From Verrucomicrobiota bacterium (GTDB lineage Bacteria > Verrucomicrobiota > Verrucomicrobiia > Limisphaerales > J093), in the NCBI GenBank assembly GCA_050012855.1, contig JBEKGJ010000007.1:34241-98240 (forward strand): 64,000 bases of DNA. Reading direction: 5' to 3'. The position numbers and the translations under genes are program-made. Below, in pieces: positions 3,849 through 59,869 of this stretch (its first letter is position 1; every line of letters begins with the position of its first letter). The notes under the pieces are model-generated. The model was given only the letters and a program-made list of their open reading frames with translations, searched no databases and was not told the origin of the DNA.

Positions 3849-4342
3849 AATTCAAGTGCAGGCAGTCGGCCTGAGAGCGCGACACTGCGCGCGATTGCCG
3901 CCAACCAAGAGTCTTTTGGCGTGTTCGCCGACATGGGCGCGCAGCCTTCCAACTGGCCGGAATCAGCGACCGCGCGCCAGTGACGTCTGCCGTGGAACTG
4001 AGACGCAACCGCGGGGTTCGATGTATCCGGTTGGCTCGGCGAACAGTCTCTCACAAAACGCCCAATCCGACGAGCAAAACACCCGAACCGATCACCAGGC
4101 TCAAGCCAAAATACAACGGTGCCACGCGGCGACTGGCGGGTCGCGAGCAATCGGTTCACGTTTCATGGTTCCAAGTGTTCAGTGCCAGCCACGCGCGTTG
4201 GAATCTGAGCGAACAATCAAGAGTATAACCCGGTCGCCCGGTGTGCGTCACGGCTTTTCCGCCGGCTTGGCCTCGCCTCCACACACCCCTGCGGCCATCG
4301 CGCTGGCAGCAGAAACGCGCGCTGGCTTGCTGCTGACGGATG

Positions 4343-4432
4343 AGCTTCGTGGCGGCGTTTTCACCGGCCACGACGTAGTCGGTATTCTTGCTCACCGAGC
4401 TGGTGACGCTGCCGCCGGCGGCGGGGGTGAGC
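4343..4432 (-). pseudogene. ligA: Orphan duplicate of the ligA BRCT-coding segment (distal direct repeat)
   Basis: 90 bp, ~93% identical to 4951..5040 inside intact ligA. It translates in frame as [30 protein letters not shown], against [30 protein letters not shown] in ligA. Similarity is lost beyond both ends. Confidence 0.8.
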
Positions 4433-4841: not shown

Positions 4842-8455
<3,614 letters not shown>

Positions 8456-14161: not shown

Positions 14162-14251
14162 ACTGGCAGCTAACGGCCCAGCTCAGCGATGCGCCGCCGA
14201 GGGCTCCGGGTTGCAACCGAGACGCGACCGGCGCATTCGCTGAAGCACAAG

Positions 14252-14488
14252 TTAGGCTCCGTCGTCATCCAAAACCGGTGGCGTCGCCGCAAAAAACTCC
14301 AGGTGGCCACACTCGGCACATGCCAGTGAATGTAACCCAATCATGGCCCCACCTTTTCCAATCTTGAATCGGTCTTGGCCGCATAACTGACAAACGAACG
14401 CTTTGCCATGAACTCCATACCGCTTCGCGCCCGTTGCTTTCTTGAACGCGGTCGCGGCACGCTTGAGTGTTGATACTTTAGTGCTCAT
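14252..14488 (-). CDS. Small zinc-ribbon protein
   Basis: 78 aa, lower GC. Contains CQLCGQDRF...CAECGHLEFF (two CxxCG knuckles). The same motif pattern occurs at the C-terminus of the 23319..23654 product. Confidence 0.55.
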   Translation of the reverse strand: MSTKVSTLKRAATAFKKATGAKRYGVHGKAFVCQLCGQDRFKIGKGGAMIGLHSLACAECGHLEFFAATPPVLDDDGA

Positions 14489-15449: not shown

Positions 15450-18400
15450 TCACGCGGCGGGCGCGGGCTGGAGGCCCCGGGCGGCCCGGCGACGCTCCCG
15501 CCATTGGGTGAACCGGTGTTGGAGCGCGTCCATGTAAAGATAGAAGACCGGCGTCAGGTAGAGCGTGATGAGCTGGGAAGTGAGCAGTCCGCCGACGATG
15601 ATCAGCCCCAACTGACGCCGGGCCCAGCCGCTGGTGCCCAGCGCAATCGGCAACGACGCCATCAGCGCGGCCATCGTGGTCATCATGATGGGGCGGAACC
15701 GGACGACGCAGCCTTTGAAGATGGCCTCCGTCGGCGGAAGACCTTCGTGGCGCTGCGCCTCCAGCGCGAAGTCAATCTGCATGATGGCGTTTTTCTTCAC
15801 GATACCGATCAACAGGATCAGGCCGACAAAGGAGTACACGTTGAGGTCGTTTTTGAAGATCACCGCGGTCAGGAGCGCGCCCAGCCCGGCTGAGGGCAGG
15901 CCGGAAAGGATGGTGAGCGGGTGGACGAAGCTCTCATACAGGATCCCGAGCACGATGTAGATGAACACGATGGACAGCACCAGGAGCAGACCCAGGCCGG
16001 TGATCGAGGCTTGGAACGCCTGCGCCGTGCCCTGGAAGCTGGGGGTGACCGAGGACGGAAGCGTGGCGCGCGCGTCCTCCTGGACCCGCTCCATCGCCTG
16101 GCTGAGGGCGACGTGCGGGCGCAGATTGAACGAGATGGTCACCGCCGGGAGCTGGCCCAGATGACTGATGGTTTGGGGACCCACGTTCTGCGTGAGTTTG
16201 CCCACGGTGTCGAGCCGCACCAGTTGGCCGGTCGCGGATTTGACATACAGTTTGGAAATGGTGTCAGGATCGCCCTGAAAACGGGGTTCGAGCTCGATCA
16301 GGACCTTGAACTGGTCGTTGGGCGCATAGATGGTGGAGATCCAGCGCGGGCCGAAGCCATCGGCGAGCGCCGATTCGATCTGCCCGGCGGTCAGGCCCAA
16401 CGCGGAGGCCTTGTCGCGGTCAATCTCCAGGTTCACCTGCGGGTTGCGGATTTGCAGGTCGCTGGTGACGTCCTGAAGTTCCGGCAGGTTGCGGAGCCGG
16501 GCTTCGAGCAGCGGGGCGGTGGCGTAGAGCTCGTCCAGATCGGGGCCCTGCAAGGCAAGCTGATAGAGGCTCTTGCTGACCTGGCCGCCGATCCGGATGG
16601 TGGGCGGGTTCTGCATGAACACCCAGATGCCCGGCACGGCGGCGAATTTCGTCCGCAGTTCCTCCATGACGCCGTACACGTCCAGCCGGCGCTCGCGCGT
16701 CGGTTTCAGATGGAGGAACATGCGCCCGTAATTCTGGCTGCCTCCGCCCGCGCTCGAGAAGAAGCCTTCGACATTCGGATCGGTGCGGGCGATTTCCACG
16801 ATGCGCTCCTGGCGACGGACCACCTCCGGAAACGCCGTGCCCAGCGGCGTCTCGGTCGTGATCATGATCTGGCTCGTGTCCTCGTCCGGCAGGAAACCCT
16901 TCGGAATCTTCACCAACATCCACCCGGTGGCCACAAGGACGCCCAGGTTGACGAGCATAACCAGGCGGCGGTGCTGCAAAACCCAGTGGAGCGTGGTCTG
17001 GTACCCCGCCAGCATGGACTCGAAGACCCGTTCGGACGCGCGGAACACCGGCCCATGTTTCGCGGCGCCGTGTGGCCGGAGGAAGCGGCTGCACAACATC
17101 GGCGTCAGCGTCAGCGAGACCATGCCGGAAATCAGAATCGAGGCGCAGATGGTCACCGAGAACTCGCGGAAGAGCCGCCCGATGATGCCGCCCATGAACA
17201 GCAGCGGGATGAAGACCGCCGCGAGGGACAGAGTCATGGACAGAATGGTGAACCCGATCTGCCGGGCGCCCTTCAAGGCCGCCTCCAGTGGCGGCTCGCC
17301 CATCTCCATGTGGCGAACGATGTTTTCGAGCATGACAATCGCGTCGTCCACGACGAACCCAATTGAGAGGGTCAGGGCCAGCAGCGACAGATTGTCGAGC
17401 GAAAAACCGAACAGGAACATGAGGCCGAAGGTGCCCATCAGGCTCAGCGGCAGCGCCAGGCTGGGAATCACGGTGGCCGACACGTTCCGCAAGAAAAGGA
17501 AAATCACCAGGATGACGAGCGCCAGGCTCAGCAGCAGCGTGAACTGCACGTCATGCACCGAATCGCGGATGGTCACCGACCGGTCGTAAACGGTGTGCAG
17601 CTCGACCGACGGCGGCAGATACGACTGGAATGTGGGAAAGAGCTTCTTGATCGAGTCGCAGACCTCGACGGTGTTGGCGCCGGGCTGCCGTTGGACAGCC
17701 AGGATGAGGGACCGGTCATGGTGCTCCGCGTCGTTGAACCAGGAAGCGGTCCGTTCGTCTTCCACGCTGTCGGTCGCACGGCCAATGTCGCGCAAGCGGA
17801 CGGGCGCGCCGTGGCGGTAGGCGACGATGATGTCATTGTAGCGGCTGGCGTCGAGGAGCTGGCCGGAGGCCTGGATCGTGAAGGTGCGTTCCTTGCCGAA
17901 AATCGTGCCCACGGCCAGGTTTACGTTGGCATTGCGGACGGCATTTTCGAATTCATCAATGCCGATGCCCCGATCCGCGAGCGCGTCGGGATTCGCCTGC
18001 ACGTGGACGGCATAGTGCTGGCTGCCGTACACGGAAACCTGGGCCACCCCGTTCACCATCGAGATCCGCTGGGCCATCATCACCTCGCCGTAATTGGCCA
18101 CCGTCCACATCGGCAGGGTCTTCGAGGTCAGCGCCAGGTAGAGGATGGGCGAATCCGCGGGGTTGACCTTGCGGTAGATCGGGGGCTGGGGCATGCCCGG
18201 CGGCAGCAGCGGGGTGGCCTGCGCGATGGCCGCCTCGATGTCCGGCGGGACGTCGGTGATTTTCCGGCGCAGGTTGAACTGGAGCGTGATGGAAACGGAG
18301 CCGAGGCTGCTGATCGAACTCATCGAGTCCACGCCGTCAATCGTCGAGAACTGCCGCTCCAACGGGGTTGCCACCGCCGAGGCCATGGTCGTGGGGTTCG

Positions 18401-31109: not shown

Positions 31110-33503
31110 ATGCAAGTCCAACGGTTCCTGCCTGGCATCGCCGCCCTCGCGCTGTGGCTCCTTGCCTGCGGTTGCGGCACCAAAACCACGGCCCCGGCAC
31201 CCGAGCCTCGGACCGTCCCCGCGCCAAGCAACCTTGTCTTTCAACCAGACCGGCTGGCCGAAATGGACAACGTGATCCGCCAGGCCATCGCCGACAAGAA
31301 ATGCCCCGGCGGCGTGCTGTGGCTCGAGCGGCTCGGCACCGCCTACTACCAGGCCTACGGCCAGCGCGCTGGGGTCCCCGCGCCGGAGCCGATGACCGAG
31401 GACACGATTTTCGACGCCGCGTCGCTGACAAAAGTGCTCGCCACCGCGCCGGCCATCATGTCCCTGGTCGAGCGCGGGCAGATCCAGCTTGATGCAACCG
31501 CCCAAAGCTACCTGGCGGAATTCACCGGCGACGGCAAGGAGGCCATCACGATCCGTCAATTGCTCACCCACACGTCCGGCCTGCCGTCGGGCATCGGCCG
31601 GAGTCCCGACTGGACCGGCTATGACACCGCGATCCGACTGGCCTGCGCGGTGAAGCTGATCAACCGCCCGGGCACGACGTTCGTTTACAGCGACATCAAT
31701 TTCATCGTCCTCGGCGAGATCGTCCGTCGCGTCAGCGGTCGCGGACTGGACATGTTCACGGCCGAAAGCTTCTACCGGCCGCTGGGGATGGTGGACACGG
31801 AGTTTAACCCGCCCCCGGCGAAGCTCCCGCGCATTGCACCGACCGAGGTAGTAGATGGCAAGCCGTTCCGCGGCGTGGTGCATGATCCGACGTCCCGCCG
31901 CATGGACGGCGTCGCGGGCCACGCTGGCCTGTTCACCACCGCCGCCGACCTCGCCCGGTTCTGCCGCATGATGCTCAACGGTGGCGAACTCGATGGGGTG
32001 CGCGTGTTGCGGACGGAAACCGTCGCGCTCATGACCAGCGTCCAGACGCCGCCGGCGGTTCCGGCCCGGCGCGGGCTGGGCTGGGACATTGACTCGCCCT
32101 ATGCCGGCGAGCGCGGCGACCGTTTTCCGCTGGGCGGCTACGGCCACACGGGCTGGACCGGCGGATCGCTCTGGATTGATCCGTTTTCGCGCACGTTTTT
32201 GATTTTCCTCTCGAACCGCAATCATCCCGACGAAAGCGGGAACGTTCTCCCGCTGCGCCACATGCTGGGCACGCTGGCGGCCGAAGCGGTCGTAGGTTTC
32301 GATTTCAGTGCCGTGCCGGGCGCCCTGCCCGCCCGCACGAACGCCGCACCCGCGTGGCCAATGCCGACGGCGACCAATATGACCGTGCTCAACGGGATTG
32401 ACGTGCTCGCCCGACAGCAGTTCGCCCCGTTGCGTGGGTTGCGCGTCGGGCTGATCACCAACCCCACCGGCCACGACCGTGAGCGCCGGGCCACGATTGA
32501 TCTCCTCAAGGCTGCGCCCGAGGTCCGGCTCGTCGCCCTCTTCAGTCCGGAGCACGGCCTGCGCGGCGAACGCGACGAGCGGATCGGCGACAGCATGGAT
32601 GAACGGACCGGTCTGCCCGTTTACAGTCTCTATGGTGAGCGTCGCCAGCCGACCGCCGCGCAGTTGCAGGGGCTCGACGCCCTGGTGTTCGACATCCAGG
32701 ACATCGGCTGCCGGTTTTACACCTACATCGCGACAATGGGCCTGAGCATGGAGGCGGGGGCGAAGGCGGGCGTGAAATTCGTCGTGCTCGACCGCGTCAA
32801 TCCCATCGGCGGCGTGGCGGTGGACGGCCCGGTTTACGCGGGCCAGCCGGGCTTCACCGCGTTCCACGCGCTGCCGTTGCGCCACGGCATGACCGTCGGC
32901 GAGCTGGCGCGGATGTTCAACGCCGAGCGCGGCTGGCACTGCGACCTGACTGTGATTCCCGTCGCCGGCTGGTCGCGCACTCAGTGGTTTGACCAGACCG
33001 GTCTGCCGTGGACGAATCCATCGCCGAACATGCGGAGCCTGGCGGCGGCGACCCTTTACCCCGGCGTTGGCCTGCTGGAGACGGCGTTGTCCGTGGGTCG
33101 CGGGACGGAGACGCCGTTCGAGCTGGTGGGGGCGCCTTACATTGACGAGGCGGCGTTGGCGGCGGAACTCAACCGCGCCGGTCTGGCGGGCGTGCAGTTC
33201 GAGCCGGTGCGGTTCACCCCGACGGCGAGCGTGTTCAAGGACCGGCCCTGCGGTGGCGTGCGAATCCGCCTGGCCGATCGCAACCATGCCGACGCCGTGG
33301 GGCTGGGCATTGTGCTGGCGCAGACGTTGCACCGGCTCTATCCGCAGCAGTTCAAGCTGGAGAAGATGAACACGCTGCTACAGGACCCCGGCACCCTCGA
33401 CGCGATCCGGGCGGGCGCATCGCTCGCGGAGATCCGCGCCCGGTGGAACGCGCCGCTGGCGGCATTTCGGGAACGTCGGTCAAAATACCTCCTCTATCCA
33501 TGA
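31110..33503 (+). CDS. Fusion: beta-lactamase-family serine hydrolase (AmiE-like) + DUF1343 (NamZ-like exo-muramidase)
   Basis: N-terminal half has the SxxK motif (ASLTKVLAT), YSDIN and GHTGWTGG. C-terminal half (from about aa 400) has LNGIDVL...VGLITNPTG...LFSPEHG...PVYSLYG...FDIQDIGCRFYTYI, typical of DUF1343. Confidence 0.85.
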   Translation: MQVQRFLPGIAALALWLLACGCGTKTTAPAPEPRTVPAPSNLVFQPDRLAEMDNVIRQAIADKKCPGGVLWLERLGTAYYQAYGQRAGVPAPEPMTEDTIFDAASLTKVLATAPAIMSLVERGQIQLDATAQSYLAEFTGDGKEAITIRQLLTHTSGLPSGIGRSPDWTGYDTAIRLACAVKLINRPGTTFVYSDINFIVLGEIVRRVSGRGLDMFTAESFYRPLGMVDTEFNPPPAKLPRIAPTEVVDGKPFRGVVHDPTSRRMDGVAGHAGLFTTAADLARFCRMMLNGGELDGVRVLRTETVALMTSVQTPPAVPARRGLGWDIDSPYAGERGDRFPLGGYGHTGWTGGSLWIDPFSRTFLIFLSNRNHPDESGNVLPLRHMLGTLAAEAVVGFDFSAVPGALPARTNAAPAWPMPTATNMTVLNGIDVLARQQFAPLRGLRVGLITNPTGHDRERRATIDLLKAAPEVRLVALFSPEHGLRGERDERIGDSMDERTGLPVYSLYGERRQPTAAQLQGLDALVFDIQDIGCRFYTYIATMGLSMEAGAKAGVKFVVLDRVNPIGGVAVDGPVYAGQPGFTAFHALPLRHGMTVGELARMFNAERGWHCDLTVIPVAGWSRTQWFDQTGLPWTNPSPNMRSLAAATLYPGVGLLETALSVGRGTETPFELVGAPYIDEAALAAELNRAGLAGVQFEPVRFTPTASVFKDRPCGGVRIRLADRNHADAVGLGIVLAQTLHRLYPQQFKLEKMNTLLQDPGTLDAIRAGASLAEIRARWNAPLAAFRERRSKYLLYP

Positions 33504-34552
33504 ACCTCGAACCACCGGTTGTCGGATCCTCCGCCCGGCCCAGCACCCGGGCCGCGGCGTGGATGTTGTTCTTCCTCGCCCCGGCCGTCGGCGAACTGCT
33601 GAGCGGTTCGTCGCCGCCGCTCCGGTTTTTCAATCCCTTCACGCTGCTGATGGAGGCTTTCCTCTACGGCAGCGGCGCGTTGCTGGCGCGCGAGTTCACC
33701 CTCCGGTGGCGGCGAGGCTGGCCGACACTGCTGGCCCTGGGCGCGGCTTATGCCATCATTGAGGAGGGCTTGTGCTGCAAAAGCTTCTTTGACGCCAACT
33801 GGCCGGACGTCGGCCTGCTGGGCAGCTACGGGCGGTGGCTGGGGGTGAACTGGGCGTGGGCCGCCATGTTGATCCTGTTCCACACCGTGTTCAGCATTCT
33901 CCTCCCGATCACGCTGGTGGAGCTGACTTTTCCGGCGGCGCGCCATGAATCCTGGGTCGGCCCCCGGTGGCGCTGGGTGCTCGTCGGCCTGCTCACCCTG
34001 GTGGTCGTAACCGGGTTCCTGTTTTTCCCGGAGGGCAAGCACCCGTTCCGGCCGCCGCCGCTGGGCTATGGGCTCGCCGTGGTGAGCGTGGTGGTTCTCG
34101 GGGTCGTCGCCCGGCGGATGCCATTATTTCCCGCGCGGGCGGGCGGGCGCACGACGGCGGCCCGACCCTGCTGGTTCGTGCTGGTGGGGTTCTTCGGGAC
34201 GGTGGGGTTGTTTGCGACGTTCTGGCTGTTGCCGAACACGCCGCTGCATCCGTTGTTGACGGTGGCCGTGGGCCTGGTGCTGGGCGCCGGCGTGCTGGTC
34301 CTGGTCCTGTGGATGTCGGGTGGCGCGCACGCGTGGGGCGACCGGCATCGGGTGGCGCTCGTGTCCGGCGGGTTATGTTTCTTCGTGCTGCTGGCGCCGT
34401 TGCTGGAATTTGGCAAGCAGAACCCCTCCAAGCCGATGACCGGCATGGCGCTGGTGGGGCTGGCGACGCTGGGCTTCCTCCTCTGGCTGGGCCGGCGACT
34501 TCGGCGAATTCGGAGGTTGAATCCCCCGGGCGCGGCCGCAACATGCGCCTGA
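33500..34552 (+). CDS. Polytopic membrane protein, function unknown
   Basis: The start at 33500 overlaps the upstream stop (ATGA). At least 8 hydrophobic helices. The last ~17 codons lie inside direct repeat DR-A. Confidence 0.6.
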   Translation: MNLEPPVVGSSARPSTRAAAWMLFFLAPAVGELLSGSSPPLRFFNPFTLLMEAFLYGSGALLAREFTLRWRRGWPTLLALGAAYAIIEEGLCCKSFFDANWPDVGLLGSYGRWLGVNWAWAAMLILFHTVFSILLPITLVELTFPAARHESWVGPRWRWVLVGLLTLVVVTGFLFFPEGKHPFRPPPLGYGLAVVSVVVLGVVARRMPLFPARAGGRTTAARPCWFVLVGFFGTVGLFATFWLLPNTPLHPLLTVAVGLVLGAGVLVLVLWMSGGAHAWGDRHRVALVSGGLCFFVLLAPLLEFGKQNPSKPMTGMALVGLATLGFLLWLGRRLRRIRRLNPPGAAATCA

Positions 34553-34593
34553 CACTGCCTTATGAAAAGTCGCACTACTCCGCTGCTGGCCGC
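34502..34593. repeat. Island direct repeat DR-A (left boundary)
   Basis: 92 bp with 82/92 identity to 40692..40783. It covers the 3' end of the membrane-protein gene, the spacer, and an ATG plus ~10 codons homologous to the GH172 signal peptide ([11 protein letters not shown] versus MKNRTTLLLAA). Confidence 0.85.
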
Positions 34594-34987
34594 CAGTGCC
34601 TTCTGGCTGCCGCCCGAAGGGCGCTGGCAGACCATCCAGGCGACGGCCAAGTTGGCTGGGGTTGAAAAGGGTGGCGGGACCTTCAGGTCGGCCAAAACAA
34701 GTTGCCGCAATCGGCGAATGCACCGCGACTTCTCCCTCGCCGCCGCGAACGGGAACTTGAGCTGCTTGAGAGGCGGCGAAAGGGATTCGGCGAAGCCGAA
34801 GGACCGCTGCGGGCCGAGCGAGCGGGCGCGAGCGAGTCACTGGGCTGGGGTGAGACGTCGAGTTCAGCGCAACGCCGACATTTTTCAACATTTCATCCAT
34901 CACCTCTCGCCCGTGGGCGTGGCCGGATTCGTCCTCGCTGGTGGCACTATGTCCTCCAACCAGTCCGGCGATGCATTTGAAAACTAG
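34594..34987 (+). pseudogene. hsdM: Type I R-M methylase (HsdM) remnant, internally deleted and interrupted by a repeat element
   Basis: Two in-frame fragments: [19 protein letters not shown] (HsdM N-domain FxVPxxARW motif) and [33 protein letters not shown] (region after the catalytic motif; consensus WxQHFIxHLxPxGxAGFVLANGSMSS). About 250 aa between them are missing. The fragments are fused to the DR-A pseudo-start. Confidence 0.65.
34731..34845. repeat. Inverted-repeat element, left copy (IR-L)
   Basis: The reverse complement of core 34755-34845 matches 39459-39549 at about 93% (42 nt perfect: GCCCAGTGACTCGCTCGCGCCCGCTCGCTCGGCCCGCAGCGG). Contains internal small hairpins (TTCGGC-GAA-GCCGAA). 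Confidence 0.8.
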
Positions 34988-34993
34988 AAGCTC

Positions 34994-36223
34994 ATGATTG
35001 TTCGCCACATCACCCAGCCGGATCAATTTCACGGTCAAATTCTGGCCACTTTACTGGCACAGGCTCCTCATCCAAGAAGAGTAGTGCTTGTTTCAGCATT
35101 CGCTGGGTTACAGACCGTGATGCGTTTCAAACATTCCTTGATCGGTTTATCGGAACGTGGTGCCTTGGTTCGCCTTGTGATTGGTGTCGACATGCAGGGC
35201 ACTAGCCGAGAAGTGCTACAAGAATTGGCATCTTGGACACAAGTAGAAGTCTTCGTTTATCGGCACAGGAGGCCGGGACACACATTCCATCCGAAGATTG
35301 CTCTCATCGAATCGCCCACCGCATCTGATGTCTTTGTTGGTTCAAACAATCTCACCGAAGGGGGGCTCTTTCGGAATTATGAGGCCGCTAGCCATATTAC
35401 ATATTCGCTCCCGGCAGATTCTGATGCCTACACCCAAGCATGTCTTGGCCTTCGGCGGTTCCTAGAGCCAACATTGCCACTCGGACTGCGGCTAACTCCA
35501 AACCTTTACCAAGCACTCGCCCAAAGAACCGACATCCCGTCAGAAGCGCAACTCCAAGCAGATCGTCGCCGACAACGGGCTCAGTCTCAGGCCGGCGAAC
35601 CTGCGCAGAGACCTGAGGAAATATTTGGAACAGAGGCAATTCCCGCCCCGCCGCCGCTTCCGGCCGAACTGCTTGACGCGCTTTCGCTCGCCGTGAACCG
35701 CCGCCGTCGGGCGGTGGCGCAGCCAAATGCGGCCGCGCCTGCGATTGTCTCACCAGCACAAATAGCACCAGCGTCTTTTTACATGACGCTTCCAACGTTA
35801 CAGGGACCAAACATTCCGGGTGAAGGGCGAATACCACTCGCTGCCATTGAAATGGCGGAGGATTTTTGGGGATGGCCGGACGCCTATGAACGTCGTGAAA
35901 GCCCACGAGGTGGCGCGGAACGCGTCTATTTCAACTGGAGAAGTCGCTGGCAAATTGCCAATGCAGCGAATCCCGGAGTTCATACCCGCCAAGAGGTTCG
36001 AATGTACATGTACGAAAACAGTTCAGATTTTCGATTCTATGCCCGCCCTTTGGTGAATGCAGGAGCCGACCTTGGCGATATTGTGAGAATTACGCGAATC
36101 GGCTCGGAGGACGTCGATTTTGAATGCCTTCTCGCCCACCAAGGAACACCCGAGCATGCCACTTGGCTTCCGTTTTGCACGACTCTCGTCCGGAGCAGCA
36201 CGAGGAGATTCGGCTACGGGTGA
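34994..36223 (+). CDS. PLD-superfamily (single HKD) nuclease with putative B3-like DNA-binding C-terminal domain; BfiI/NgoFVII-like restriction endonuclease candidate
   Basis: 409 aa. One HKD motif, HTFHPKIALIESPTASDVFVGSNNLTEGG (aa 99-123). A Pro/Ala/Gln-rich linker follows. The C-terminal ~150 aa (FYMTLPTL...GEGRIPLAAIEMAEDFWGW...VYFNWRSRWQI...VRMYMYENSSDFRFY...GDIVRITRI) are beta-rich, in a pattern reminiscent of B3/EcoRII-N/BfiI-C pseudobarrels. GC is lower than the host. Confidence 0.7.
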   Translation: MIVRHITQPDQFHGQILATLLAQAPHPRRVVLVSAFAGLQTVMRFKHSLIGLSERGALVRLVIGVDMQGTSREVLQELASWTQVEVFVYRHRRPGHTFHPKIALIESPTASDVFVGSNNLTEGGLFRNYEAASHITYSLPADSDAYTQACLGLRRFLEPTLPLGLRLTPNLYQALAQRTDIPSEAQLQADRRRQRAQSQAGEPAQRPEEIFGTEAIPAPPPLPAELLDALSLAVNRRRRAVAQPNAAAPAIVSPAQIAPASFYMTLPTLQGPNIPGEGRIPLAAIEMAEDFWGWPDAYERRESPRGGAERVYFNWRSRWQIANAANPGVHTRQEVRMYMYENSSDFRFYARPLVNAGADLGDIVRITRIGSEDVDFECLLAHQGTPEHATWLPFCTTLVRSSTRRFGYG

Positions 36224-36264
36224 TATAGCATCACAAACACTCGGCGGCAGCCATGATTTTGGCA

Positions 36265-39162
36265 CTATGCTGTTTTTTCACACCAAATGATCTCATTCTC
36301 CGTGATGCTGTGCCTTGCGTGACGCCGGTTCTCGGTAGTTACGGTAATGGGAATCCGATCACGAATGTTCCACCCAAGTTCTGCCGCAGTTTCGGTCAAA
36401 ACATCCGCGCTCTTTATTATTACTTCCTGATCACCGGCGGTCGTGACGTTGTCGCCGATGACAAAAAAAGCTGACGCGCCGAGCTTGAGACACATGTCGA
36501 GATTTCGGAAGACCTTCGTCATGTCGGCGAAATAACGCAAGAGAAGCGCAGCCATGTTCTTCCTGCGGAAACCAACATCGGCGCTTTTATTGAGGCGATG
36601 GATTTTGGTGACGATAGCGCGAGCGGTAACGGATGGCACGTCATCGAATAGTGCAGCCTCGATTGTTGCTTCGAGCTTACGTCGGTCGCCATTGCGAATT
36701 TCTCTACTTCCTGTCAAAGACTCTTCAATTTGCGAACGCTCTGAGGACGAAACGCCGCAAAGAAGCAAGATGCTCAACCGGTCCGTGTCGATGTAGGGTA
36801 GCGCAGTCGCATAGGGAGGGCTCGTGATTACAGCGTTCACGCTCTCTTTTGTAATTCCAGCCGAGCTAAAACTGCGCACGTCTCGGCTGTCGTTCTGCCA
36901 GATATGTGAATCGCGGAATTTACACGGAGCTTTGTTTGATCGTGACGCGAATTCGCTTAACCGACCACGCTGTTCGGCAAGGTGCGACAAAAACAATTCA
37001 AAGACTGGCGCATCTTCAATCGGTTTGTCACGGCGTCGAATCCGAAGGTCTTTTGGGTCTTGCTGGGAAATATCTCGCACGATGCTGCTGAGCAGGACTT
37101 CGAGAAATTCTTTTACTCGCACCTCTGGCGTCTCACGGATTGCACGGAGCAACGCTGCGAGCTTGCGAAGCACCATTGTTGGAAACCAAGCCTCAAGTTC
37201 TTTCATTGAGGTTTGTGGGAAAACATCCAATTCAGACGATGGCTTTAATGCTGCAACTCGTTGTTGAAAAAGCGCCAGAAGCCGGTCTCGTAAATAGGGG
37301 TCAACCAATACAACCTCGGTTTTCGCCTTGGCAATCTTGATGGCCAACGGATTCATGTCGAAACCGACACCCTCAAATCCGTTGAGATACGCTTCAAGCG
37401 GGACAGTCCCACTTCCACAGAACGGGTCGAGAACTCGTTGGCCAATCGAAAGCCCCGCGAGATTAAAGAGGCTGCGGGCCAGTTGGGGGTAAAATTTGCC
37501 CTTGTAGGCATGTATGCCATGCGTGACATATTTCGGGTCTTTTCTCGCAGAAGTTTTCAGGGCATCGCCGTTTTCAAGAATCGCCTGCCAAGTTGGTTCT
37601 TCATGGATGGAAGTTGCAGCAAAGCTGTGACTAAACGTAAGCTGTCGCAGCTTGTCGATTTGAAGGGGACTGATTCGGGCCGTCAATATGTTGCCAAGCT
37701 CTTCTTGGGCGCTGACGCCGAGCAAGTGACTAATTTCAACTTTCCGAAGTTCCGCCTCATAGGGCCAAAGTTTGTATGGGGGTGGAAAGATCCGAATCTT
37801 CACTTGTTCAAGCGGCTTCCTTAACACCAGTAAACTTTCGGAGCGCAGCCGTCGCGCAGTTGAAATGAACGACCGGCGATGTTTGGGAAGGTCGCGTTCA
37901 ATTTCTCCGACGACCTCAAATCCTACTTCTTGAGCTCGCTCTCCGAGCAGACCAGCCGTGTGGGATAGTTTCCCAGCAAACAGGGAATCTCCAACAACCA
38001 TTACCGCAAAGCGCCCTGGACGGAGGCCATGCATCATGTGTCCGAGGCACTGCTGCATTTCGTTCAGGTATTCCTGAATTCCAGATTGCTCTTTCTGGTG
38101 TCGAAGGTGCGAGCCTATCTCCTTTTTCGCCAGCTCACGCGGATCGAATCCGAGCCAGAAGAGTCGGAAACGGTGGTAAAGATGGTAATCGTTGGCGTTG
38201 GCGTAGGGCGGCGACGTTACGATCAAGTCCACCGATCCCGGTTTGACGACATCGCCTTGCCGCAGGTCCGCAGTCAGGAATTGCGCTTCGCGAAATTGCA
38301 GAAACGTGCCGAGGTAACGAACCTTCTTCAGTGACGATTCCAATGCACCGGCAAACAGCCGGATGATCTTTCCTAGCGGGAATTCTTTCTGACAACGCGC
38401 ATATCGTGTCTCACTGTCTTGAAACGAAGCCTTGAGAATAATCTTCGACAGGCAGACCGACGCAAGGCGTTGGCATTTTTCCGACTGGAAAGTCTTGATT
38501 CGCGCTCTCAAATAAGAAAGCTCGGCAACTGCGTTTGGGTGAAACCATTGATCACAGTTTGGAATGTCAGGGGCAAACTGTGAAAGAGGGGCAAACCTGT
38601 TTAATGCTTCCGAGACAGAACCTTCACTTGCCGAAATGATGAACAACTGTTCAACAAGACTGGTCAGAAAATCGTCATCCTCTTTTGTGGGGGTGAGCAG
38701 CTTCGCCTTGCCAATGACTTCGGCAAGAGGATTCAAATCAGAACTGATTGCCTGCCGTCCCAAAAGCACGCTTTCGAGAGCTGTTGTGCCGCTGCCGCCA
38801 AATGGATCCCAAACCGTTTCTCCCGGAAGAGACAGGCGAGCAATCAGGTTGCGTGGGATTTGAGGGACAAACTTCGAAGGGTAGGGATGAATGTCGTGAG
38901 AAAGATAAGTCGTGTCATCGTCGGTGAAAGCCCAGTCAAGTTGCTGCAACTGGCGCAAAACTTCATCAGCGTCCGCTAACGATTCCAGGTTTTGAGGGTC
39001 TTGAGGGGTTTGTATCGGCTCAAACGAAAAATCGGCTGTGGCCTCGGCGATGTTGTCCGTGAACCACTCGGTCAAGGTCGCCCCGTTCTCTTTCAGCACA
39101 GAGGCGAGCGCCTGTTTCTGCGACTTGGTGGTTTCTACAAGGATTTGCGTTCCGGTTCGCAT
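36265..39162 (-). CDS. Tandem double DNA methyltransferase (two N4C/N6A-type modules) with putative N-terminal ribbon-helix-helix segment
   Basis: 965 aa, the lowest GC in the window. Module 1: HPYPSKFVPQIPRNLI...WDPFGGSGTT (aa 119-127) and IVTSPPY (317-320). Module 2: HAYKGKFYPQLARSLF...LDPFCGSGTV (579-587) and VITSPPY (781-784). N-terminal TQILVETTKSQKQALASVLKENGATLTEWFTDNI has a strand-helix-helix pattern. Convergent with the PLD gene. Confidence 0.85.
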   Translation of the reverse strand: MRTGTQILVETTKSQKQALASVLKENGATLTEWFTDNIAEATADFSFEPIQTPQDPQNLESLADADEVLRQLQQLDWAFTDDDTTYLSHDIHPYPSKFVPQIPRNLIARLSLPGETVWDPFGGSGTTALESVLLGRQAISSDLNPLAEVIGKAKLLTPTKEDDDFLTSLVEQLFIISASEGSVSEALNRFAPLSQFAPDIPNCDQWFHPNAVAELSYLRARIKTFQSEKCQRLASVCLSKIILKASFQDSETRYARCQKEFPLGKIIRLFAGALESSLKKVRYLGTFLQFREAQFLTADLRQGDVVKPGSVDLIVTSPPYANANDYHLYHRFRLFWLGFDPRELAKKEIGSHLRHQKEQSGIQEYLNEMQQCLGHMMHGLRPGRFAVMVVGDSLFAGKLSHTAGLLGERAQEVGFEVVGEIERDLPKHRRSFISTARRLRSESLLVLRKPLEQVKIRIFPPPYKLWPYEAELRKVEISHLLGVSAQEELGNILTARISPLQIDKLRQLTFSHSFAATSIHEEPTWQAILENGDALKTSARKDPKYVTHGIHAYKGKFYPQLARSLFNLAGLSIGQRVLDPFCGSGTVPLEAYLNGFEGVGFDMNPLAIKIAKAKTEVVLVDPYLRDRLLALFQQRVAALKPSSELDVFPQTSMKELEAWFPTMVLRKLAALLRAIRETPEVRVKEFLEVLLSSIVRDISQQDPKDLRIRRRDKPIEDAPVFELFLSHLAEQRGRLSEFASRSNKAPCKFRDSHIWQNDSRDVRSFSSAGITKESVNAVITSPPYATALPYIDTDRLSILLLCGVSSSERSQIEESLTGSREIRNGDRRKLEATIEAALFDDVPSVTARAIVTKIHRLNKSADVGFRRKNMAALLLRYFADMTKVFRNLDMCLKLGASAFFVIGDNVTTAGDQEVIIKSADVLTETAAELGWNIRDRIPITVTTENRRHARHSITENEIIWCEKTA

Positions 39163-39191
39163 TTCTGGGATGGTAGTCTATCATCCCAGAA
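39163..39191. promoter_or_regulatory. Perfect 10-bp inverted repeat abutting the methyltransferase start codon (candidate operator)
   Basis: TTCTGGGATG-N9-CATCCCAGAA. On the coding strand the right arm runs directly into the ATG (CATCCCAGAAATG). Confidence 0.45.
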
Positions 39192-39209
39192 TCTGACAAT
39201 AGATTTTTT

Positions 39210-39445
39210 CACCTTTTTTGCATGGCCATGCCGGACATTTCGATTTTGTCCGACGAATTTCTGGCCGAGGTCCAGCGGCTGCCACGGCGCGACCTTGCCG
39301 TGGAATTGTTCCAGAAGCTGCTGAACAACGAGTTGAAAACTCGGCAGAAGAAATACCTGGTCCAGTCCTGCTCGTTCGCTGAAATGCTGGAAGCCACCAT
39401 CCGCAAATAGCAAAACCGCACCATCGAGGCCGCGCAGGGATTTCG
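39210..39445 (+). pseudogene. hsdR: Type I restriction subunit HsdR, C-terminal fragment only
   Basis: [71 protein letters not shown] matches the conserved HsdR C-terminal (DUF3387-type) region. The in-frame TAG (39408-39410) sits where homologs have Tyr (RKYQNR). Nothing N-terminal to this survives. Confidence 0.65.
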
Positions 39446-39458
39446 ACAGCTCGCCCCG

Positions 39459-39573
39459 GCCCAGTGACTCGCTCGCGCCCGCTCGCTCGGCCCGCAGCGG
39501 GCCTGCGGCTTCGCCGAATTCCTTTCGCCGCCTCCCAAGCGGCTCAAGTCCCCGGACGAGGCGGAGAGGGTGT
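39459..39573. repeat. Inverted-repeat element, right copy (IR-R)
   Basis: See IR-L. Lies between the hsdR remnant and the four-helix-bundle gene. Confidence 0.8.
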
Positions 39574-40005
39574 CGGTCCTGGCCTGACCTGCCGCTTCTC
39601 CAGCGTGCCGTTGCCCGGGATGGGCCGGGTCGGCTCAAACCTGTGTAAACGCCTGAGAATCAGCGTCTCGCGTTCAAGCACCGGGGGCTGATTGGCGTGC
39701 GGCAGGCCCGGAACGGCGCGTTTTGACCGCTGACGGCCGCGCGGAGGACGCTTTCCGGAACGCGGATCGTTCTGATCCGGTCGCGGACGGTGCTTTCGCT
39801 TTCGCGGGAGACGCTTAGGGCGGCGGGGCAACCGCTTTCAGCGGCGCGGAGGGCGCTGACGGGGCGGCGGACGACGGGGACATTTGCGCGGCGCCTGCCG
39901 CTCCTCCGGCGGAAGGCCCTGCGGGTCGTGCGCGTCAGGCCGTCCCATTCGCGGCGGACGATTACGAGGAGGAGATGCTGCGCCTCTGCCGCCGCACTGC
40001 CTGGC

Positions 40006-40650
40006 ATGAAGCAAGGGCCGGAGAGACTGATTCCCTTGCATCGCGGGTACCGGAAGCTGAAGAGCTTCCAGGTTGCCCAACTGGCCTACGATGTGACGGT
40101 GCGTTTCTGCGACCGCTATATTGACAGGCGGAGCCGGACCCACGACCAGATGGTCCAGGCGGCGCGGTCGGGCGTGCAGAACATCGCCGGGGGCAGTCAG
40201 GCGAGTGGAACGTCCAAGAAGACCGAGCTCAAGCTCACAAACGTGGCCCGGGCCAGCCTGGAGGAACTGCGGCTGGACTATGAGGATTTTCTGCGGCAGC
40301 GCGGTCTGGCGCAGTGGCCCAGCGAAGACGTGCGCCGGGCGGAACTGATAGCAGCGCGGCCCGGCACCGCCGATGATGTGGCGGAGTGGGTGCGGGCCGT
40401 GCATGAGGGACTACATGGACGACGTGGACAGGATGGACAAAGCCCGGTAGAACAAAAGTCCACGGTGTCCATTCAGGCCACCACGTCCACCTATGCTGAG
40501 ATTTCAGCCAACGGCGCGCTGGCGCTGCTGACGGTGGCGTGCAGCCTGCTGGACCGCCAGATAACTTCTCTCGAAAAGGCCTTCGTGGAAGAGGGCGGTT
40601 TCACCGAGCGGCTCTATCGTGTCCGCAGCCAGAGGAGAAGGCGCGGTTGA
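40006..40650 (+). CDS. Four-helix-bundle protein (23S rRNA IVS-protein family) with C-terminal suffix domain
   Basis: Start preferred at MKQGPERLIPLHRGYRKLKSFQVAQLAYDVTVRFCDRY...QMVQAARSGVQNIAGGS...SLEELRLDYEDFLRQRGL, the family signature. As I recall, this family is often embedded in Type I R-M loci. Confidence 0.8.
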   Translation: MKQGPERLIPLHRGYRKLKSFQVAQLAYDVTVRFCDRYIDRRSRTHDQMVQAARSGVQNIAGGSQASGTSKKTELKLTNVARASLEELRLDYEDFLRQRGLAQWPSEDVRRAELIAARPGTADDVAEWVRAVHEGLHGRRGQDGQSPVEQKSTVSIQATTSTYAEISANGALALLTVACSLLDRQITSLEKAFVEEGGFTERLYRVRSQRRRRG

Positions 40651-40691
40651 ACTTGCCGTGCCTGCCGCCGCCGGAGTGCCGGGGGCGGTCC

Positions 40692-40783
40692 CGGCGAATT
40701 CGGAGGTTGAATTCCCCGCCCCCGGCCGCAACATGCGGCTGACACTGCTTTATGAAAAACCGCACCACCCTGCTGCTGGCCGC
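40692..40783. repeat. Island direct repeat DR-B (right boundary)
   Basis: Partner of DR-A. Contains the real start and signal-peptide codons of the GH172 gene. Confidence 0.85.
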
Positions 40784-42296
40784 GCTCGTCGCCGGCGCCA
40801 CCTCCCTGCTCGCCCAATCGTCCCCCGGTTTCCCCACCGGCAACCCGCTCGCCGGTCTGGAGAAACTCAAGAACTTCGAGACCCGCCGGGCCTCGTCGTC
40901 CGACCCGAACTGGAAGAATGGCAACAACGACGCCCGGCCGATCGCGCCCGGAGGCACGTTGACCCTCGGCGAATTCGACGGTCCGGGCGTCATCACCCAC
41001 TTCTGGTGCACCATCGCCCACGACGCCCCCTACTACTCGCGGCTGATGACGCTCCGGATCTACTGGGACGGCGAGGAACATCCCAGCGTCGAATGCCCCA
41101 TCGGCGATTTCTTCGGGATCGGCCACGGCGTGGACCAGTCGTTCACGTCGCTGCCGATCCGGGTCACGTCGAACGGACGCGCCCGGAATTGTTACTGGCC
41201 GATGCCGTTCCGGAAGTCGGCGCGCATCACCGTCACGAATGAGAGCGAGCAGCGCTGTCATGCCTTTTACTACTACCTGGACTGGCAAAAGCACGATTCG
41301 CTGCCGGACGACACCGCCTATTTTCACGCGATGTACCGCCAGGAATATCCGTGCGTGATGGGGCAGAACTATCTGCTGGCGGACCTCGTCGGCCGCGGCC
41401 ACTACATCGGCACCATCCAGAGCGTGTATCACGTGTCGCCCGGCTGGTACGGCGAAGGCGACGATTTCTTCTTCATTGACGGCGCGGCCGAACCGCAACT
41501 GCGCGGCACGGGCACGGAGGATTATTTCTGCAACGGCTGGGGCTTCGAGCAGCAGGCCGGTCCCTTTTACGGCACGCCACTGTGGGAGGGTTTCGACACG
41601 GGCGACCGCGGCACGGCCTACCGTTTCCACATCCCCGACCCGGTGACGTTCACCAAATCCCTGCGGGTCGAGATCGAACACAAGGGCTCGGAGACGTTCC
41701 CGGACGGGAAGTTCGACGGCTTCATCGAGCGCGACGATCTGATGTCGAGCGTGGCGTTGTGGTATCAGACCGAGCCGCACAAGGTCTGGCTGGCGTTGCC
41801 GCCCGGCGCGGAGCGGCTGCCGTTCCGGGAACAATCGCTGGTCGTGGGCTGGAAATCGGTCAAGGAAGCGAAACACTCCGCGGCGCCGCTCGAGGTGCAG
41901 GAAGTCGGCGGCCTGACCGACAACAAGCAGCTCTGGTTCAAGCCCACCGACACGAACGCGTGGGTGGAGGTGCCGTTCAGCACGGAAAAAGAGGCCACCG
42001 CGCAGTTGTGGGTGAAACTGCTGCATTCCTGGGACTACGGGACGTATCGGGTGCGGCTCGATGGCAAGGAACTGGCCACTCTCGACCTGCTCAACGCGGA
42101 CGCGGTTCCGGAAGCGCACAAGCTGGGCTTCGTCACACTTGCGGCCGGGCCGCACACGCTGCGGTTCGAGTGCGTGGGCAAGGCCGAGAAATCCAAGGGC
42201 TACTTTTTCGGATTCGATACCCTGACGGCGCGGATCCCGGTCTATTCCCGGCCCGCGAGCAAGGATCTGCGCGAACTGCAGGTGGCGCCGAAGTGA
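40752..42296 (+). CDS. DUF2961 / GH172-family glycoside hydrolase, secreted
   Basis: Signal peptide MKNRTTLLLAALVAGATSLLAQ. Motifs GVITHFWCTIAH, IGDFFGIGHG, NCYWPMPFRKSARITVTNES, FYYYLDWQKH and WYGEGDDFFFIDG...LRGTGTEDYF. Confidence 0.85.
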   Translation: MKNRTTLLLAALVAGATSLLAQSSPGFPTGNPLAGLEKLKNFETRRASSSDPNWKNGNNDARPIAPGGTLTLGEFDGPGVITHFWCTIAHDAPYYSRLMTLRIYWDGEEHPSVECPIGDFFGIGHGVDQSFTSLPIRVTSNGRARNCYWPMPFRKSARITVTNESEQRCHAFYYYLDWQKHDSLPDDTAYFHAMYRQEYPCVMGQNYLLADLVGRGHYIGTIQSVYHVSPGWYGEGDDFFFIDGAAEPQLRGTGTEDYFCNGWGFEQQAGPFYGTPLWEGFDTGDRGTAYRFHIPDPVTFTKSLRVEIEHKGSETFPDGKFDGFIERDDLMSSVALWYQTEPHKVWLALPPGAERLPFREQSLVVGWKSVKEAKHSAAPLEVQEVGGLTDNKQLWFKPTDTNAWVEVPFSTEKEATAQLWVKLLHSWDYGTYRVRLDGKELATLDLLNADAVPEAHKLGFVTLAAGPHTLRFECVGKAEKSKGYFFGFDTLTARIPVYSRPASKDLRELQVAPK

Positions 42297-46718: not shown

Positions 46719-50080
<3,362 letters not shown>

Positions 50081-50097: not shown

Positions 50098-50493
50098 TTA
50101 GGCCGCCGTGGCCAATTCCCGGCGGGACAAGGTCAGCGGATACGACTGGATGAGGACATCGGCGGAGATTCCCAGGCCGGCGTGCAGGCGCCGGATCATC
50201 GCCATCGTCAGAGCCCGGCGGCGGCCGAGGATGTCGTGAACGATCCGGGCGCTGCCAATATACGGAATCAGATCGCTGGCCGATAAGCCGCGGCTTTCCA
50301 GGTGGTATCGGATCGCCTCCACGGGGTCGGGTGCCGGCATCGGTTCGTGCTCGCTTTCGTAGGCTTCCACCAGCGTGGTGAGCACATCCAATTGATCGCC
50401 AGTCGGCGTGCCGGGCTTGGCGTCGAAGAGACGCTCGATTTGCGCCAGGGCCGCCTGGTGGTCTGCTTCCGTCCGGATGGGGCGAATTTGCAT
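50098..50493 (-). CDS. higA: HigA-family antitoxin (XRE HTH)
   Basis: Start at MQIRPIRTEADHQAALAQIERLFDAKPGTPTGDQLDVLTTLVEAYE, the typical HigA N-terminal region, followed by an HTH segment (ALTMAMIRRLHAGLGISADVLI). Confidence 0.8.
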   Translation of the reverse strand: MQIRPIRTEADHQAALAQIERLFDAKPGTPTGDQLDVLTTLVEAYESEHEPMPAPDPVEAIRYHLESRGLSASDLIPYIGSARIVHDILGRRRALTMAMIRRLHAGLGISADVLIQSYPLTLSRRELATAA

Positions 50494-50510
50494 GGCTCTC
50501 GCCTTTCCTG

Positions 50511-50804
50511 TCAAACCGTCGTCACGTTGATTCGGTCGTAGTCCACATGCGTTCCAACGAACCGCACATACACAATGCCATAGCCGTAATGGATGGCAAC
50601 CACCAGACGGTAGGCGTTGCCCTTGATGTTGAAGACCACCCGGTTGTTGGCCACGACGCTCGCATTGCGGTAAATCCGTTTCAGGTCGGCTGGCGACCGC
50701 CAGTCGGCCCGCTTGGCATCCCGGAACCACGCCAGCAACGGCTGACGGGCATCCGGGTGACGCTCCCAGAATTCCCGGAGAATCCGGCGGGAGATGATGC
50801 GCAT
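50511..50804 (-). CDS. higB: HigB-family mRNA interferase toxin
   Basis: MRIISRRILREFWERHPDARQPLLAWFRDAKRADWRSPADLKRIYRNASVVANNRVVFNIKGNAYRLVVAIHY is the HigB toxin signature. The ATG lies 6 nt after the decarboxylase stop. Confidence 0.85.
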   Translation of the reverse strand: MRIISRRILREFWERHPDARQPLLAWFRDAKRADWRSPADLKRIYRNASVVANNRVVFNIKGNAYRLVVAIHYGYGIVYVRFVGTHVDYDRINVTTV

Positions 50805-50809
50805 CGCCG

Positions 50810-50845
50810 CTCAGGTGTTCACGTGCACCACCTTCGCGGGCGGGA
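50810..50845. repeat. Proximal copy of the 36-bp direct repeat (3' end of the intact decarboxylase gene)
   Basis: Identical to 50045..50080. Confidence 0.9.
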
Positions 50846-59408: not shown

Positions 59409-59575
59409 CACGCTGGCGATTCCGCGCCAATGCGAGCCGGATTGACTATGAGCACGCCGACACAAACGAAGCCCGGCTCCACGTTCAAAACCGTGCCGGT
59501 CACGCCGCCGAGCCAGCACACTATCATCCGCGCCCGCTCGCTCTAGCCTGCCGGCGGTCGGTCGGGATTCGATTC

Positions 59576-59693
59576 GGGGAGCACAGGCGGCTCGCCTGTT
59601 GCGTCCGGCGGCCCGCCGGACGCTTCATTCTGGCGGAGTGGGCAGGTTTTCGGCGGGCCGCCGAAAACCACACGCCGGCGGCATGTGCTCCCC
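59576..59693 (+). other. GC-rich multi-hairpin structured element (candidate ncRNA or repeat)
   Basis: Closing stem GGGGAGCACA (59576-85) pairs with TGTGCTCCCC (59684-93). It encloses three near-perfect hairpins: CAGGCG-GCT-CGCCTG, GCGTCCGGC-GGCC-GCCGGACGC and GGTTTTCGGCG-GGC-CGCCGAAAACC. Confidence 0.3.
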
Positions 59694-59869
59694 GGAAAAG
59701 GGGTCGGTTCTTGATAATGGATACTCATCGCCCGGCTTCCTCCGGCGAGACAACCGGTGGTTCGGATGACCGCGCGTTGCCATCCACGGCGGCCCGGCGG
59801 TCCACGACCCACCGCGCCATTTCGCCAGTTGCGTCCCCGGCGCGCCGTCGGCTAGATTGTTCCCGGTTT

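Follow-up and report, generated by a model that had tools for sequence, protein, structure and literature searches.

This study concerns a defence slot in a 64-kb stretch of contig JBEKGJ010000007.1 (assembly GCA_050012855.1) from an uncultured peat Verrucomicrobiota; the whole stretch of 64,000 nt is referred to as the window. The slot lies between a membrane protein gene and a GH172 glycoside hydrolase gene, and is bounded by two direct repeats of 92 nt, DR-A and DR-B, each of which contains the junction of these two genes (Table 1). Fragments of the type I restriction-modification (R-M) genes hsdM and hsdR, a further R-M gene pair and a four-helix-bundle gene were recognised between the repeats with Pfam, PADLOC and NCBIfam, in agreement with an initial annotation, made from the sequence, that had described the interior as defence-related or decayed. 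The lack of integrase, transposase and tRNA genes was also already reported there. Indeed, Pfam, PADLOC and precomputed Pfam matches revealed no integrase or transposase domain in the open reading frames (ORFs) of the island, in the surrounding 20 kb or in 10 additional large ORFs elsewhere in the window, the whole window was free of tRNA genes, and Rfam gave no known RNA within 33-42 kb.

Related loci, identified by L numbers, were taken from 90%-identity protein clusters of the membrane protein and GH172, and their flanking genes were 90-93% identical to those of the window at the nucleotide level. About five lineages were sampled. A more distant relative (sample ERZ27236874), with 74% amino acid identity in the membrane protein and 85% in GH172, is represented by the contigs L083 (membrane-gene end) and L094 (GH172 end). 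The synteny of the GH172 flank is kept in L087, L088 and L094. Gene calls of 329 and 350 aa exist for the membrane protein, and its homologues align up to a C-terminal RR(I/L)RR tail.

Table 1. Features of the defence slot and of a second insertion in the window (positions in the window).
Feature	Position	Strand	Description
Membrane protein gene, AF_0692 family (PF27245)	33500-34552	+	ORF with precomputed Pfam match; last 17 codons inside DR-A
DR-A	34502-34593	+	Membrane-gene-adjacent copy: true membrane-gene tail (last 17 codons and stop), 10-nt spacer, decaying copy of GH172 start
Chimeric pseudo-ORF, 141 aa	34562-34987	+	Copied GH172 start, hsdM fragment 1, left inverted-repeat arm, hsdM fragment 2
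hsdM fragment 1	34594-34733		In frame with copied GH172 start; common to L087 up to 34670
Left arm of 128-nt inverted repeat	34734-34861		Inverted copy of element X; GC 0.70
hsdM fragment 2	34862-34987		Pseudo-ORF residues 96-137 match PADLOC MTase_I PDLC03019, profile positions 295-336
Type IIS R-M module, two genes	34982-39175		52% GC; collinear with R-M pairs of L096 and L097
Restriction endonuclease (R), BfiI-like, 409 aa	34994-36223	+	N-terminal PLD/HKD domain and C-terminal BfiI-type DNA-binding domain
Fused double DNA methyltransferase (M), 965 aa	36265-39162	-	Two N6_N4_Mtase domains (PF01555), each with SPPY; convergent with R
hsdR C-terminal fragment	39222-39462	+	Pfam T1RH-like_C E = 4.6e-17, PADLOC REase_I; in-frame TAG at 39411
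Right inverted-repeat arm (element X)	39443-39570		Apparently native context; followed by spacer
Four-helix-bundle gene	40006-40650	+	TIGR02436 and 4helix_suffix TIGR04258, NCBIfam above cut-off; intact
DR-B	40692-40783	+	GH172-adjacent copy: non-coding copy of membrane-gene tail, spacer, true GH172 start
GH172 (DUF2961) glycoside hydrolase gene	40752-42296	+	Pfam E = 9.7e-80; first gene of conserved right flank
131-aa partner of HigB toxin	50098-50493	-	Toxin-antitoxin pair
HigB-family toxin gene	50511-50804	-	Part of toxin-antitoxin pair 50098-50804

The direct repeats duplicate a gene junction

DR-A and DR-B, the sole copies of the 92-nt repeat in the window, lie in direct orientation 6098 bp apart and are identical at 81 of 92 positions (88%). 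The initial annotation had placed both repeats exactly and was mistaken only in its count of 82 identities. Each repeat consists of the final codons of the membrane gene, a 10-nt spacer and the first 11 codons of GH172 (ATG plus 10). The membrane ORF has the C-terminus ...RRIRRLNPPGAAATCA*, and the ORF terminating within DR-B ends ...RRIRRLNSPPPAATCG. As annotated, DR-A ends an intact membrane gene and its ATG with 10 codons opens a chimeric ORF joined to hsdM debris, while in DR-B the codons for MKNRTTLLLAA begin the intact GH172 gene.

The left ~58 nt of the repeat are homologous to the genuine 3′ end of the membrane gene in L083, and the right 32 nt to the genuine GH172 start in L094. Sub-strings of 21 and 25 nt found no match in 100 dinucleotide shuffles of the sequence. 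These results bear out the proposal that the repeats are homologous copies of the junction beyond compositional bias. The left edge of the repeat is fuzzy, consisting of decayed membrane-gene sequence whose length varies among loci. Within the repeat, a 24-nt core, CGGCG[A/C]ATTCGGAGGTTGAATTCC, varies little or not at all among the 11 independent copies, the non-coding ones included. The core forms an imperfect 10-7-10 palindrome, and identity drops to 65-80% on either side of it.

The membrane-gene tail appears to be under weak constraint at the protein level, since compensating +1/-1 indels recode eight tail residues in a strain variant (L086, 1230-1270). A 9-nt tandem duplication in the tail (34490-34510, CGGCGACTT-CGGCGAATT, giving RRLRRIRRL) was found in the window and in L088 and is missing from L087 and L091. 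Two weak hairpins were predicted in the repeat; support for hairpins was low (z = -2.3, -0.8 and +0.9), with almost no covariation, and the repeat was rejected as a structured RNA or DNA. No sigma-70 promoter or terminator was reported within it. The core was also rejected as a regulon operator, as there was no other good GAATTC-N7-GAATTC site in the window.

Relatives carry the same repeats around other cargo

In L088, two repeat copies enclose 7 kb of cargo with type III Mod and Res genes and PDC-M24A/B-like genes. L087 has three copies and hence two intervals. An hsdM wreck lies in the first, along with a split metallophosphatase-nSTAND (PDC-S60-like) system and a fusion of an hsdR fragment with a four-helix-bundle gene that is truncated N-terminally, unlike the intact gene of the window; the second holds DUF4256. 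Two further lineages, L092 and L093, were represented by short contigs with at least one repeat copy each, and in both the sequence immediately 5′ of the GH172-adjacent copy was again distinct. In other strains (L090 and L091) the contigs break off inside the repeat, as expected at a strain-variable repeat. The window, L088 and L087 therefore share their core genes and differ in their defence cargo, which is the mark of a defence hot spot.

In the internal repeat copy of L087 (15537-15590), the copied GH172 start opens a 17-codon ORF, MKSRTTLLLAAMRVLLP*, whose TGA stop and the ATG start of the DUF4256 cargo gene overlap as ATGA. This overlap suggests that a copied start can drive translation of downstream cargo. 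In L092, a gene on the minus strand (1-99), truncated by the end of the contig, starts 150 nt 5′ of the GH172-adjacent repeat and encodes a product beginning MTKLTVHNSEVRAEQVASTKPQTLKLGLDVHAD. The LGLDVH motif in this product resembles the N-termini of IS110-family transposases. However, the 33-aa N-terminal fragment gave no Pfam match, and an IS110-like recombinase beside the repeat is a candidate at most.

The duplication is older than the cargo

In the distant relative, both flanks are conserved, the left one as far as the membrane gene and the right one starting with GH172; they lie on different contigs and are bordered by non-defence genes. At the membrane-gene end, 20 of the 24 core positions are retained, followed by a decayed GH172 start, and at the GH172 end 23 of 24 are found 61 to 38 nt 5′ of the GH172 ATG. 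An overlap of the two contigs was rejected because they have the repeat core alone in common. In L088 and in the third repeat of L087 (DR3), the GH172-adjacent copy continues leftwards for another 50-60 nt as decayed membrane-gene sequence (p <= 0.003), so the original duplication must have measured at least ~150 bp. Identity is 66-84% for the copied GH172 starts beside the membrane gene, and 92-97% among the five GH172-adjacent copies.

Both repeat types were present in every relative found, usually around different cargo. Since this holds for the distant relative as well, and since the non-functional halves have decayed, these comparisons place the duplication before all present cargo. The initial annotation had reasoned that the same island with both repeats in all relatives would point to an ancient duplication. 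The repeats are indeed in every relative, with their halves decayed, but the islands between them are not the same.

The window and L087 allow part of the cargo history to be followed. They have in common the exact junction between the repeat and hsdM, up to 34670, and an hsdR remnant encoding YQNRT(I/M)EAA (window 39408-39462 matches the hsdR wreck of L087). They also share a block made up of the C-terminal part of the four-helix-bundle gene and the repeat (40133-40784, corresponding to L087 14917-15568), which is 95.6% identical, compared with 89.7-92.7% for the core genes. The interiors differ, with a BfiI-like R-M pair in the window and the nSTAND system in L087. Shared parts around differing interiors indicate that the common ancestor held an island with a type I R-M system and the four-helix-bundle gene, and that each lineage would later have gained a different inner module. 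Downstream of the four-helix-bundle block, the window has GH172 and L087 has DUF4256, a difference that implies crossing-over within or at the repeat.

The blocks common to both are partly rearranged, with the order hsdR′, X, Y, four-helix-bundle gene and repeat in the window, and hsdR′, truncated four-helix-bundle gene, DR2, DUF4256, X, Y, pseudo-membrane-gene and DR3 in L087. We offer no explanation for this order, nor for the finding that the hsdM wrecks of both lineages break at position ~295-297 of the PADLOC MTase_I profile. L087 keeps the part before this point (11054-11518) and the window the part after it. The common breakpoint may be the trace of an older insertion there.

A BfiI-like module nested in a type I R-M wreck

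The GC (guanine plus cytosine) content is 0.49-0.55 from ~34.75 to 39.25 kb, against 0.64-0.70 outside, so that the sharp drop described in the initial annotation is real. It does not fill the island, however. Low GC is confined to 34862-39442, and the right 1.25 kb of the island, comprising the inverted-repeat arm, the spacer and the four-helix-bundle gene, is host-like at 0.66-0.74. Nor is the low-GC DNA bounded by the direct repeats, as had been claimed. The R and M genes of the window are collinear with, and 67-68% identical in nucleotide sequence to, pairs in L096 and L097, where they recur as a two-gene unit in unrelated contexts. This homology begins 12 nt before the start codon of R and stops 13 nt past the start codon of M, spanning only 34982-39175. 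We therefore take the imported low-GC DNA to be a 4.2-kb type IIS R-M module lodged within the remains of an older type I R-M system.

The nuclease matched Pfam PLDc_2 (35.1 bits, cut-off 27) and BfiI_DBD (25.2 bits, cut-off 25), and PADLOC REase_II. It aligned with BfiI (R.BfiI, PDB 2c1l/3zi5; alignment to 2c1l) over both domains, with the HAK motif of BfiI opposite HPK in the query (the H and K residues match) and SSGN of BfiI opposite GSNN. A PLD (HxK...GSxN) domain is thus joined to a BfiI-type B3-like DNA-binding domain, as in BfiI-like type IIS systems. The methyltransferase matched two different PADLOC MTase_II models, over residues 65-449 and 456-951, and BfiI is likewise accompanied by two methyltransferase activities. 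Unlike in the BfiI system, the methyltransferases are fused and convergent with R, the nuclease has 409 rather than 358 aa, and the similarity is distant (E = 1.7e-10). Homology with BfiI predicts that an asymmetric site is protected on both of its strands by the fused double methyltransferase, and that incoming DNA lacking the modification is cut by the PLD-type nuclease. We infer that this module is the only obviously working part of the slot cargo.

A GC-rich inverted repeat with arms of 128 nt (89% complementary), overlooked in the initial annotation, encloses hsdM fragment 2, the module and the hsdR fragment. Its left arm matches L087 16426-16334 at 89%, and element X with its downstream sequence (39472-39793) corresponds to L087 16334-16777 at 89-92%. 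As L087 has a single copy (16334-16577), the right arm appears to be native and the left arm an inverted copy inside the hsdM wreck. The inverted repeat was rejected as the boundary of the module, because the homology of the R-M pairs stops at 34982 and 39175, inside the segment that it bounds; it seems to bracket the module only approximately. It could permit inversion of a 4.6-kb segment. The BfiI site ACTGGG occurs once per arm (34839-34844 on the plus strand, 39460-39465 on the minus strand), facing inward and 17 nt from the inner end in both cases, which may be coincidence. Site avoidance or a role of cleavage was not adopted: the window holds 21 ACTGGG sites against 25.9 expected, an uninformative figure.

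A second insertion with its empty site

A toxin-antitoxin pair of the HigB family is flanked by 41-nt direct repeats (50040-50080 and 50805-50845, 95% identical) that contain the stop codon of an ornithine/DAP decarboxylase gene. In L094 the site is uninterrupted and has a single copy of the 41-nt repeat (14215-14370), an empty site of the kind that the DR-A/DR-B locus lacks. On this comparison the pair is a clean insertion with long target duplication, and it demonstrates that this process is at work in the lineage.

Origin of the repeats and exchange of cargo

Insertion with long target duplication is a class defined for type I-IV R-M genes by Furuta, Abe and Kobayashi (2010; PMC2853133), after Nobusato et al. 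(2000; Gene 259:99). In this class the repeats exceed 30 bp, mobility genes are absent, and start or stop codons are often spanned. The same paper also describes R-M units with long flanking inverted repeats, and allelic substitution between R-M types. The locus in the window resembles the class in several ways. The insert carries R and M genes, is shorter than 20 kb (6098 bp) and has no other mobile-element genes that we could find. With 92 bp (at least ~150 bp in L088), its repeat exceeds 30 bp; it is a duplication of the target and spans a stop and a start codon, with both neighbouring genes intact.

We consider it probable, though by no means certain, that DR-A and DR-B are the scar of such an old insertion, turned into a recombinase-less defence slot whose cargo is swapped by homologous recombination. 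A stretch of at least ~150 bp where the membrane gene meets GH172 would have been duplicated by the insertion. In each copy, one half would still be in use (the membrane-gene tail in DR-A, the GH172 leader and start in DR-B), leaving the other halves to decay. The slot would then have become a permanent home of defence genes, its own recombinase being absent. Cargo could change in three ways: by allelic replacement through homologous recombination in the conserved flanks and repeat copies, by occasional repeat-by-repeat recombination, which is able to add a cassette, and by nested insertion and deletion within older cargo. The low-GC type IIS module would have been nested later into the slot with the type I wreck and the four-helix-bundle gene.

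The repeat haplotypes have been shuffled with respect to the flanking sequence. In its middle part, DR-A is 94% identical to copy L088_1, whose cargo is different, but only 83% to L087_1, whose cargo it shares. Haplotypes break at around positions 55-65 of the repeat, right of the core. Breakpoints that are not fixed in the core, the fuzzy left edge and the lack of a recombinase nearby support homologous recombination over a site-specific enzyme.

Several observations weigh against this explanation. The cases of Furuta et al. are defined by an empty site in a sister genome, and none was found for the DR-A/DR-B locus. The initial annotation had suggested looking in relatives for a site where GH172 comes immediately after the membrane gene and the repeat is present once. 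No sequence that we reached has this arrangement: the three full-length lineages are occupied, and two more have cargo 5′ of GH172. The ancestral adjacency of the two genes is consequently deduced from the repeat itself. In a scan of GTDB species representatives with GH172, neither the membrane gene nor p874 was near any of the 80 loci obtained. Scans of metagenome DNA with two patterns of the repeat core gave 0 matches in a collection that evidently does not hold these samples, since JGI contigs bearing the motif exist. The three-copy array of L087 comes from one contig of the metagenome-assembled genome GCA_936414465.1. Homologous recombination is our inference as the mechanism of exchange, and exchange is seen only through sequence comparison. 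The right edge of the repeat (...GGCCGC) is identical in three different cargo contexts. Finally, upstream of GH172 in the distant relative the core is retained at 23 of 24 positions, against 65-73% over the next 36 nt; this conservation exceeds what passive decay would leave and could mark a recombinase site.

Under the Campbell-type model of the initial annotation, the 6.1-kb island would have entered as circular DNA with a diverged (88%) copy of the junction, and recombination with the chromosomal junction would have produced DR-A and DR-B. An island flanked by direct repeats of a junction is what such an event would leave, and the tandem array of three repeats in L087 agrees with it. The internal copy of this array, L087_2, combines a near-intact GH172 start (94-97%) with an L093-like middle haplotype, which fits the import of a cassette together with its repeat from a different strain, and the block of four-helix-bundle gene and repeat is more alike between lineages than the core genes are. 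However, both repeat classes already occur in all relatives, the distant one included. The DR-A-hsdM junction and the block ending in DR-B are common to L087 despite the differing interiors, so that the repeats are older than the cargo of the window, and the low-GC DNA ends at 34982 and 39175, not at the repeats. No free, circular, attP-bearing or plasmid- or phage-borne copy of the repeat was found in searches of IMG/VR, plasmids and phages. We therefore regard this origin as unlikely. What stands of the proposal is the duplicated junction and recombination from repeat to repeat, as seen in the three copies of L087 and in the shuffled haplotypes; the repeats were not made by the entry of the present low-GC DNA. 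The Campbell-type proposal is thus partly supported: such a step may have served cassette gain, but is an unlikely origin of the present island.

A second alternative is that the palindromic core is an att-like site for a recombinase encoded elsewhere, with site-specific gain and loss of cassettes on an integron-like or Xer-exploiting platform. The near-invariance of the core in 11 copies, its 10-7-10 inverted-repeat layout and the lower identity on both sides would be accounted for, as would the several cassettes in one array (L087) and the constant right boundary in three cargo contexts. The sharpness of an att site is found only in part and in few sequences, as the near-invariant core is accompanied by a fuzzy left boundary, where decayed membrane-gene sequence varies in length, and by breakpoints to its right. 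Three complete cargo sets, 20 kb of flanking sequence and the window's large ORFs yielded no recombinase, and no further occurrence of the core was found in the window, in related loci totalling 1.5 Mb, or in viral contigs, plasmids and phages. The weak hairpins with hardly any covariation also speak against it. Moreover, the double use of the core can explain its conservation: it provides the RRIRRLN tail codons in one copy and leader sequence of GH172 in the other. Gene conversion may be a further factor. We find this alternative quite improbable. The specific version in which the core is a dedicated recombination site, at which a recombinase from elsewhere inserts, stacks and excises multi-gene defence cassettes at one locus, seems highly doubtful to us. 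If true, the locus would be an integron-like defence platform that has no integrase beside it and is conserved among Verrucomicrobiota lineages well diverged from each other.

A chance or compositional match, an assembly artefact or a dispersed repeat of the MITE or REP kind is effectively refuted: this GC-rich genome does have many pseudo-repeats of 25-35 nt at 70-75% identity, but DR-A and DR-B extend over 92 nt, their sub-strings are unmatched in shuffles, the same locus is found on at least 24 contigs from many independent samples, which excludes an artefact of assembly, and within the 1.5 Mb of loci the copies are confined to these two gene ends, whose coding sequence they contain.

Comparison with known systems

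The locus extends a phenomenon known from Kobayashi's group, and its mechanism is not new. It differs from the cases of Furuta et al. in that its repeats are old, 88% identical and decayed in one half each. The repeats persist across lineages with 90-93% identity and in the distant relative while the cargo turns over, and one relative has three copies. What sets it apart is that the founding duplication persists over considerable divergence while four kinds of cargo (type I, type IIS, type III and STAND-type) pass through it. The slot is a small and readable hot spot without mobility genes from an uncultured phylum, its founding scar still recognisable, and 9 kb away there is a second, younger insertion of the same type whose empty site is kept in a relative. 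Duplicated gene junctions might serve more generally as a search signature with which slots of this kind can be located in metagenome-assembled genomes.

Defence hot spots without mobile genetic elements are known in Pseudomonas aeruginosa (cDHS1 and cDHS2; PMC10250203) and Escherichia coli (hotspot #37; PMC10121019). For these, recombination in the flanks has been proposed as the route of exchange, and how they are built and exchanged is stated to be unresolved. Like them, the slot is fixed between core genes, is nearly always occupied, carries lineage-specific defence cargo of low GC and often has no detectable mobility genes. Unlike the slot, these hot spots adjoin a non-coding RNA gene, and a text search of both papers found no report of a flanking duplication of a core-gene junction. 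The present slot is also small (6-7 kb) and comes from uncultured peat Verrucomicrobiota.

As in islands with attL and attR, the repeats include the end of a target gene, which is reconstituted. Tandem accretion to three repeats in L087 and swappable cassettes are shared with such islands and with integron arrays. In contrast to integrase-borne islands, there is no integrase among the island and flank genes of the window, L087 and L088, and no tRNA target. The fuzzy left boundary and breakpoints outside the conserved core may also set the slot apart from both integrase islands and integrons. It further differs from integrons in that no IntI or attC-like structure was found and the cassettes contain several genes on both strands.

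Minor features

A Pfam match of the four-helix-bundle gene to 23S_rRNA_IVP fell below the cut-off. Upstream of this gene (39726-39893) there are degenerate repeats with a period of ~21 nt and a consensus of roughly ACGCTGACGGSCGSGCGGAGG, and a similar stretch lies just 5′ of the repeat in L092 (183-240). Elsewhere in the window, a 91-nt direct repeat occurs at 4342-4432 and 4950-5040 (93% identity, 608-nt spacing), and a hairpin with 44-nt arms and a 32-nt loop lies directly 3′ of mutS (59575-59694).

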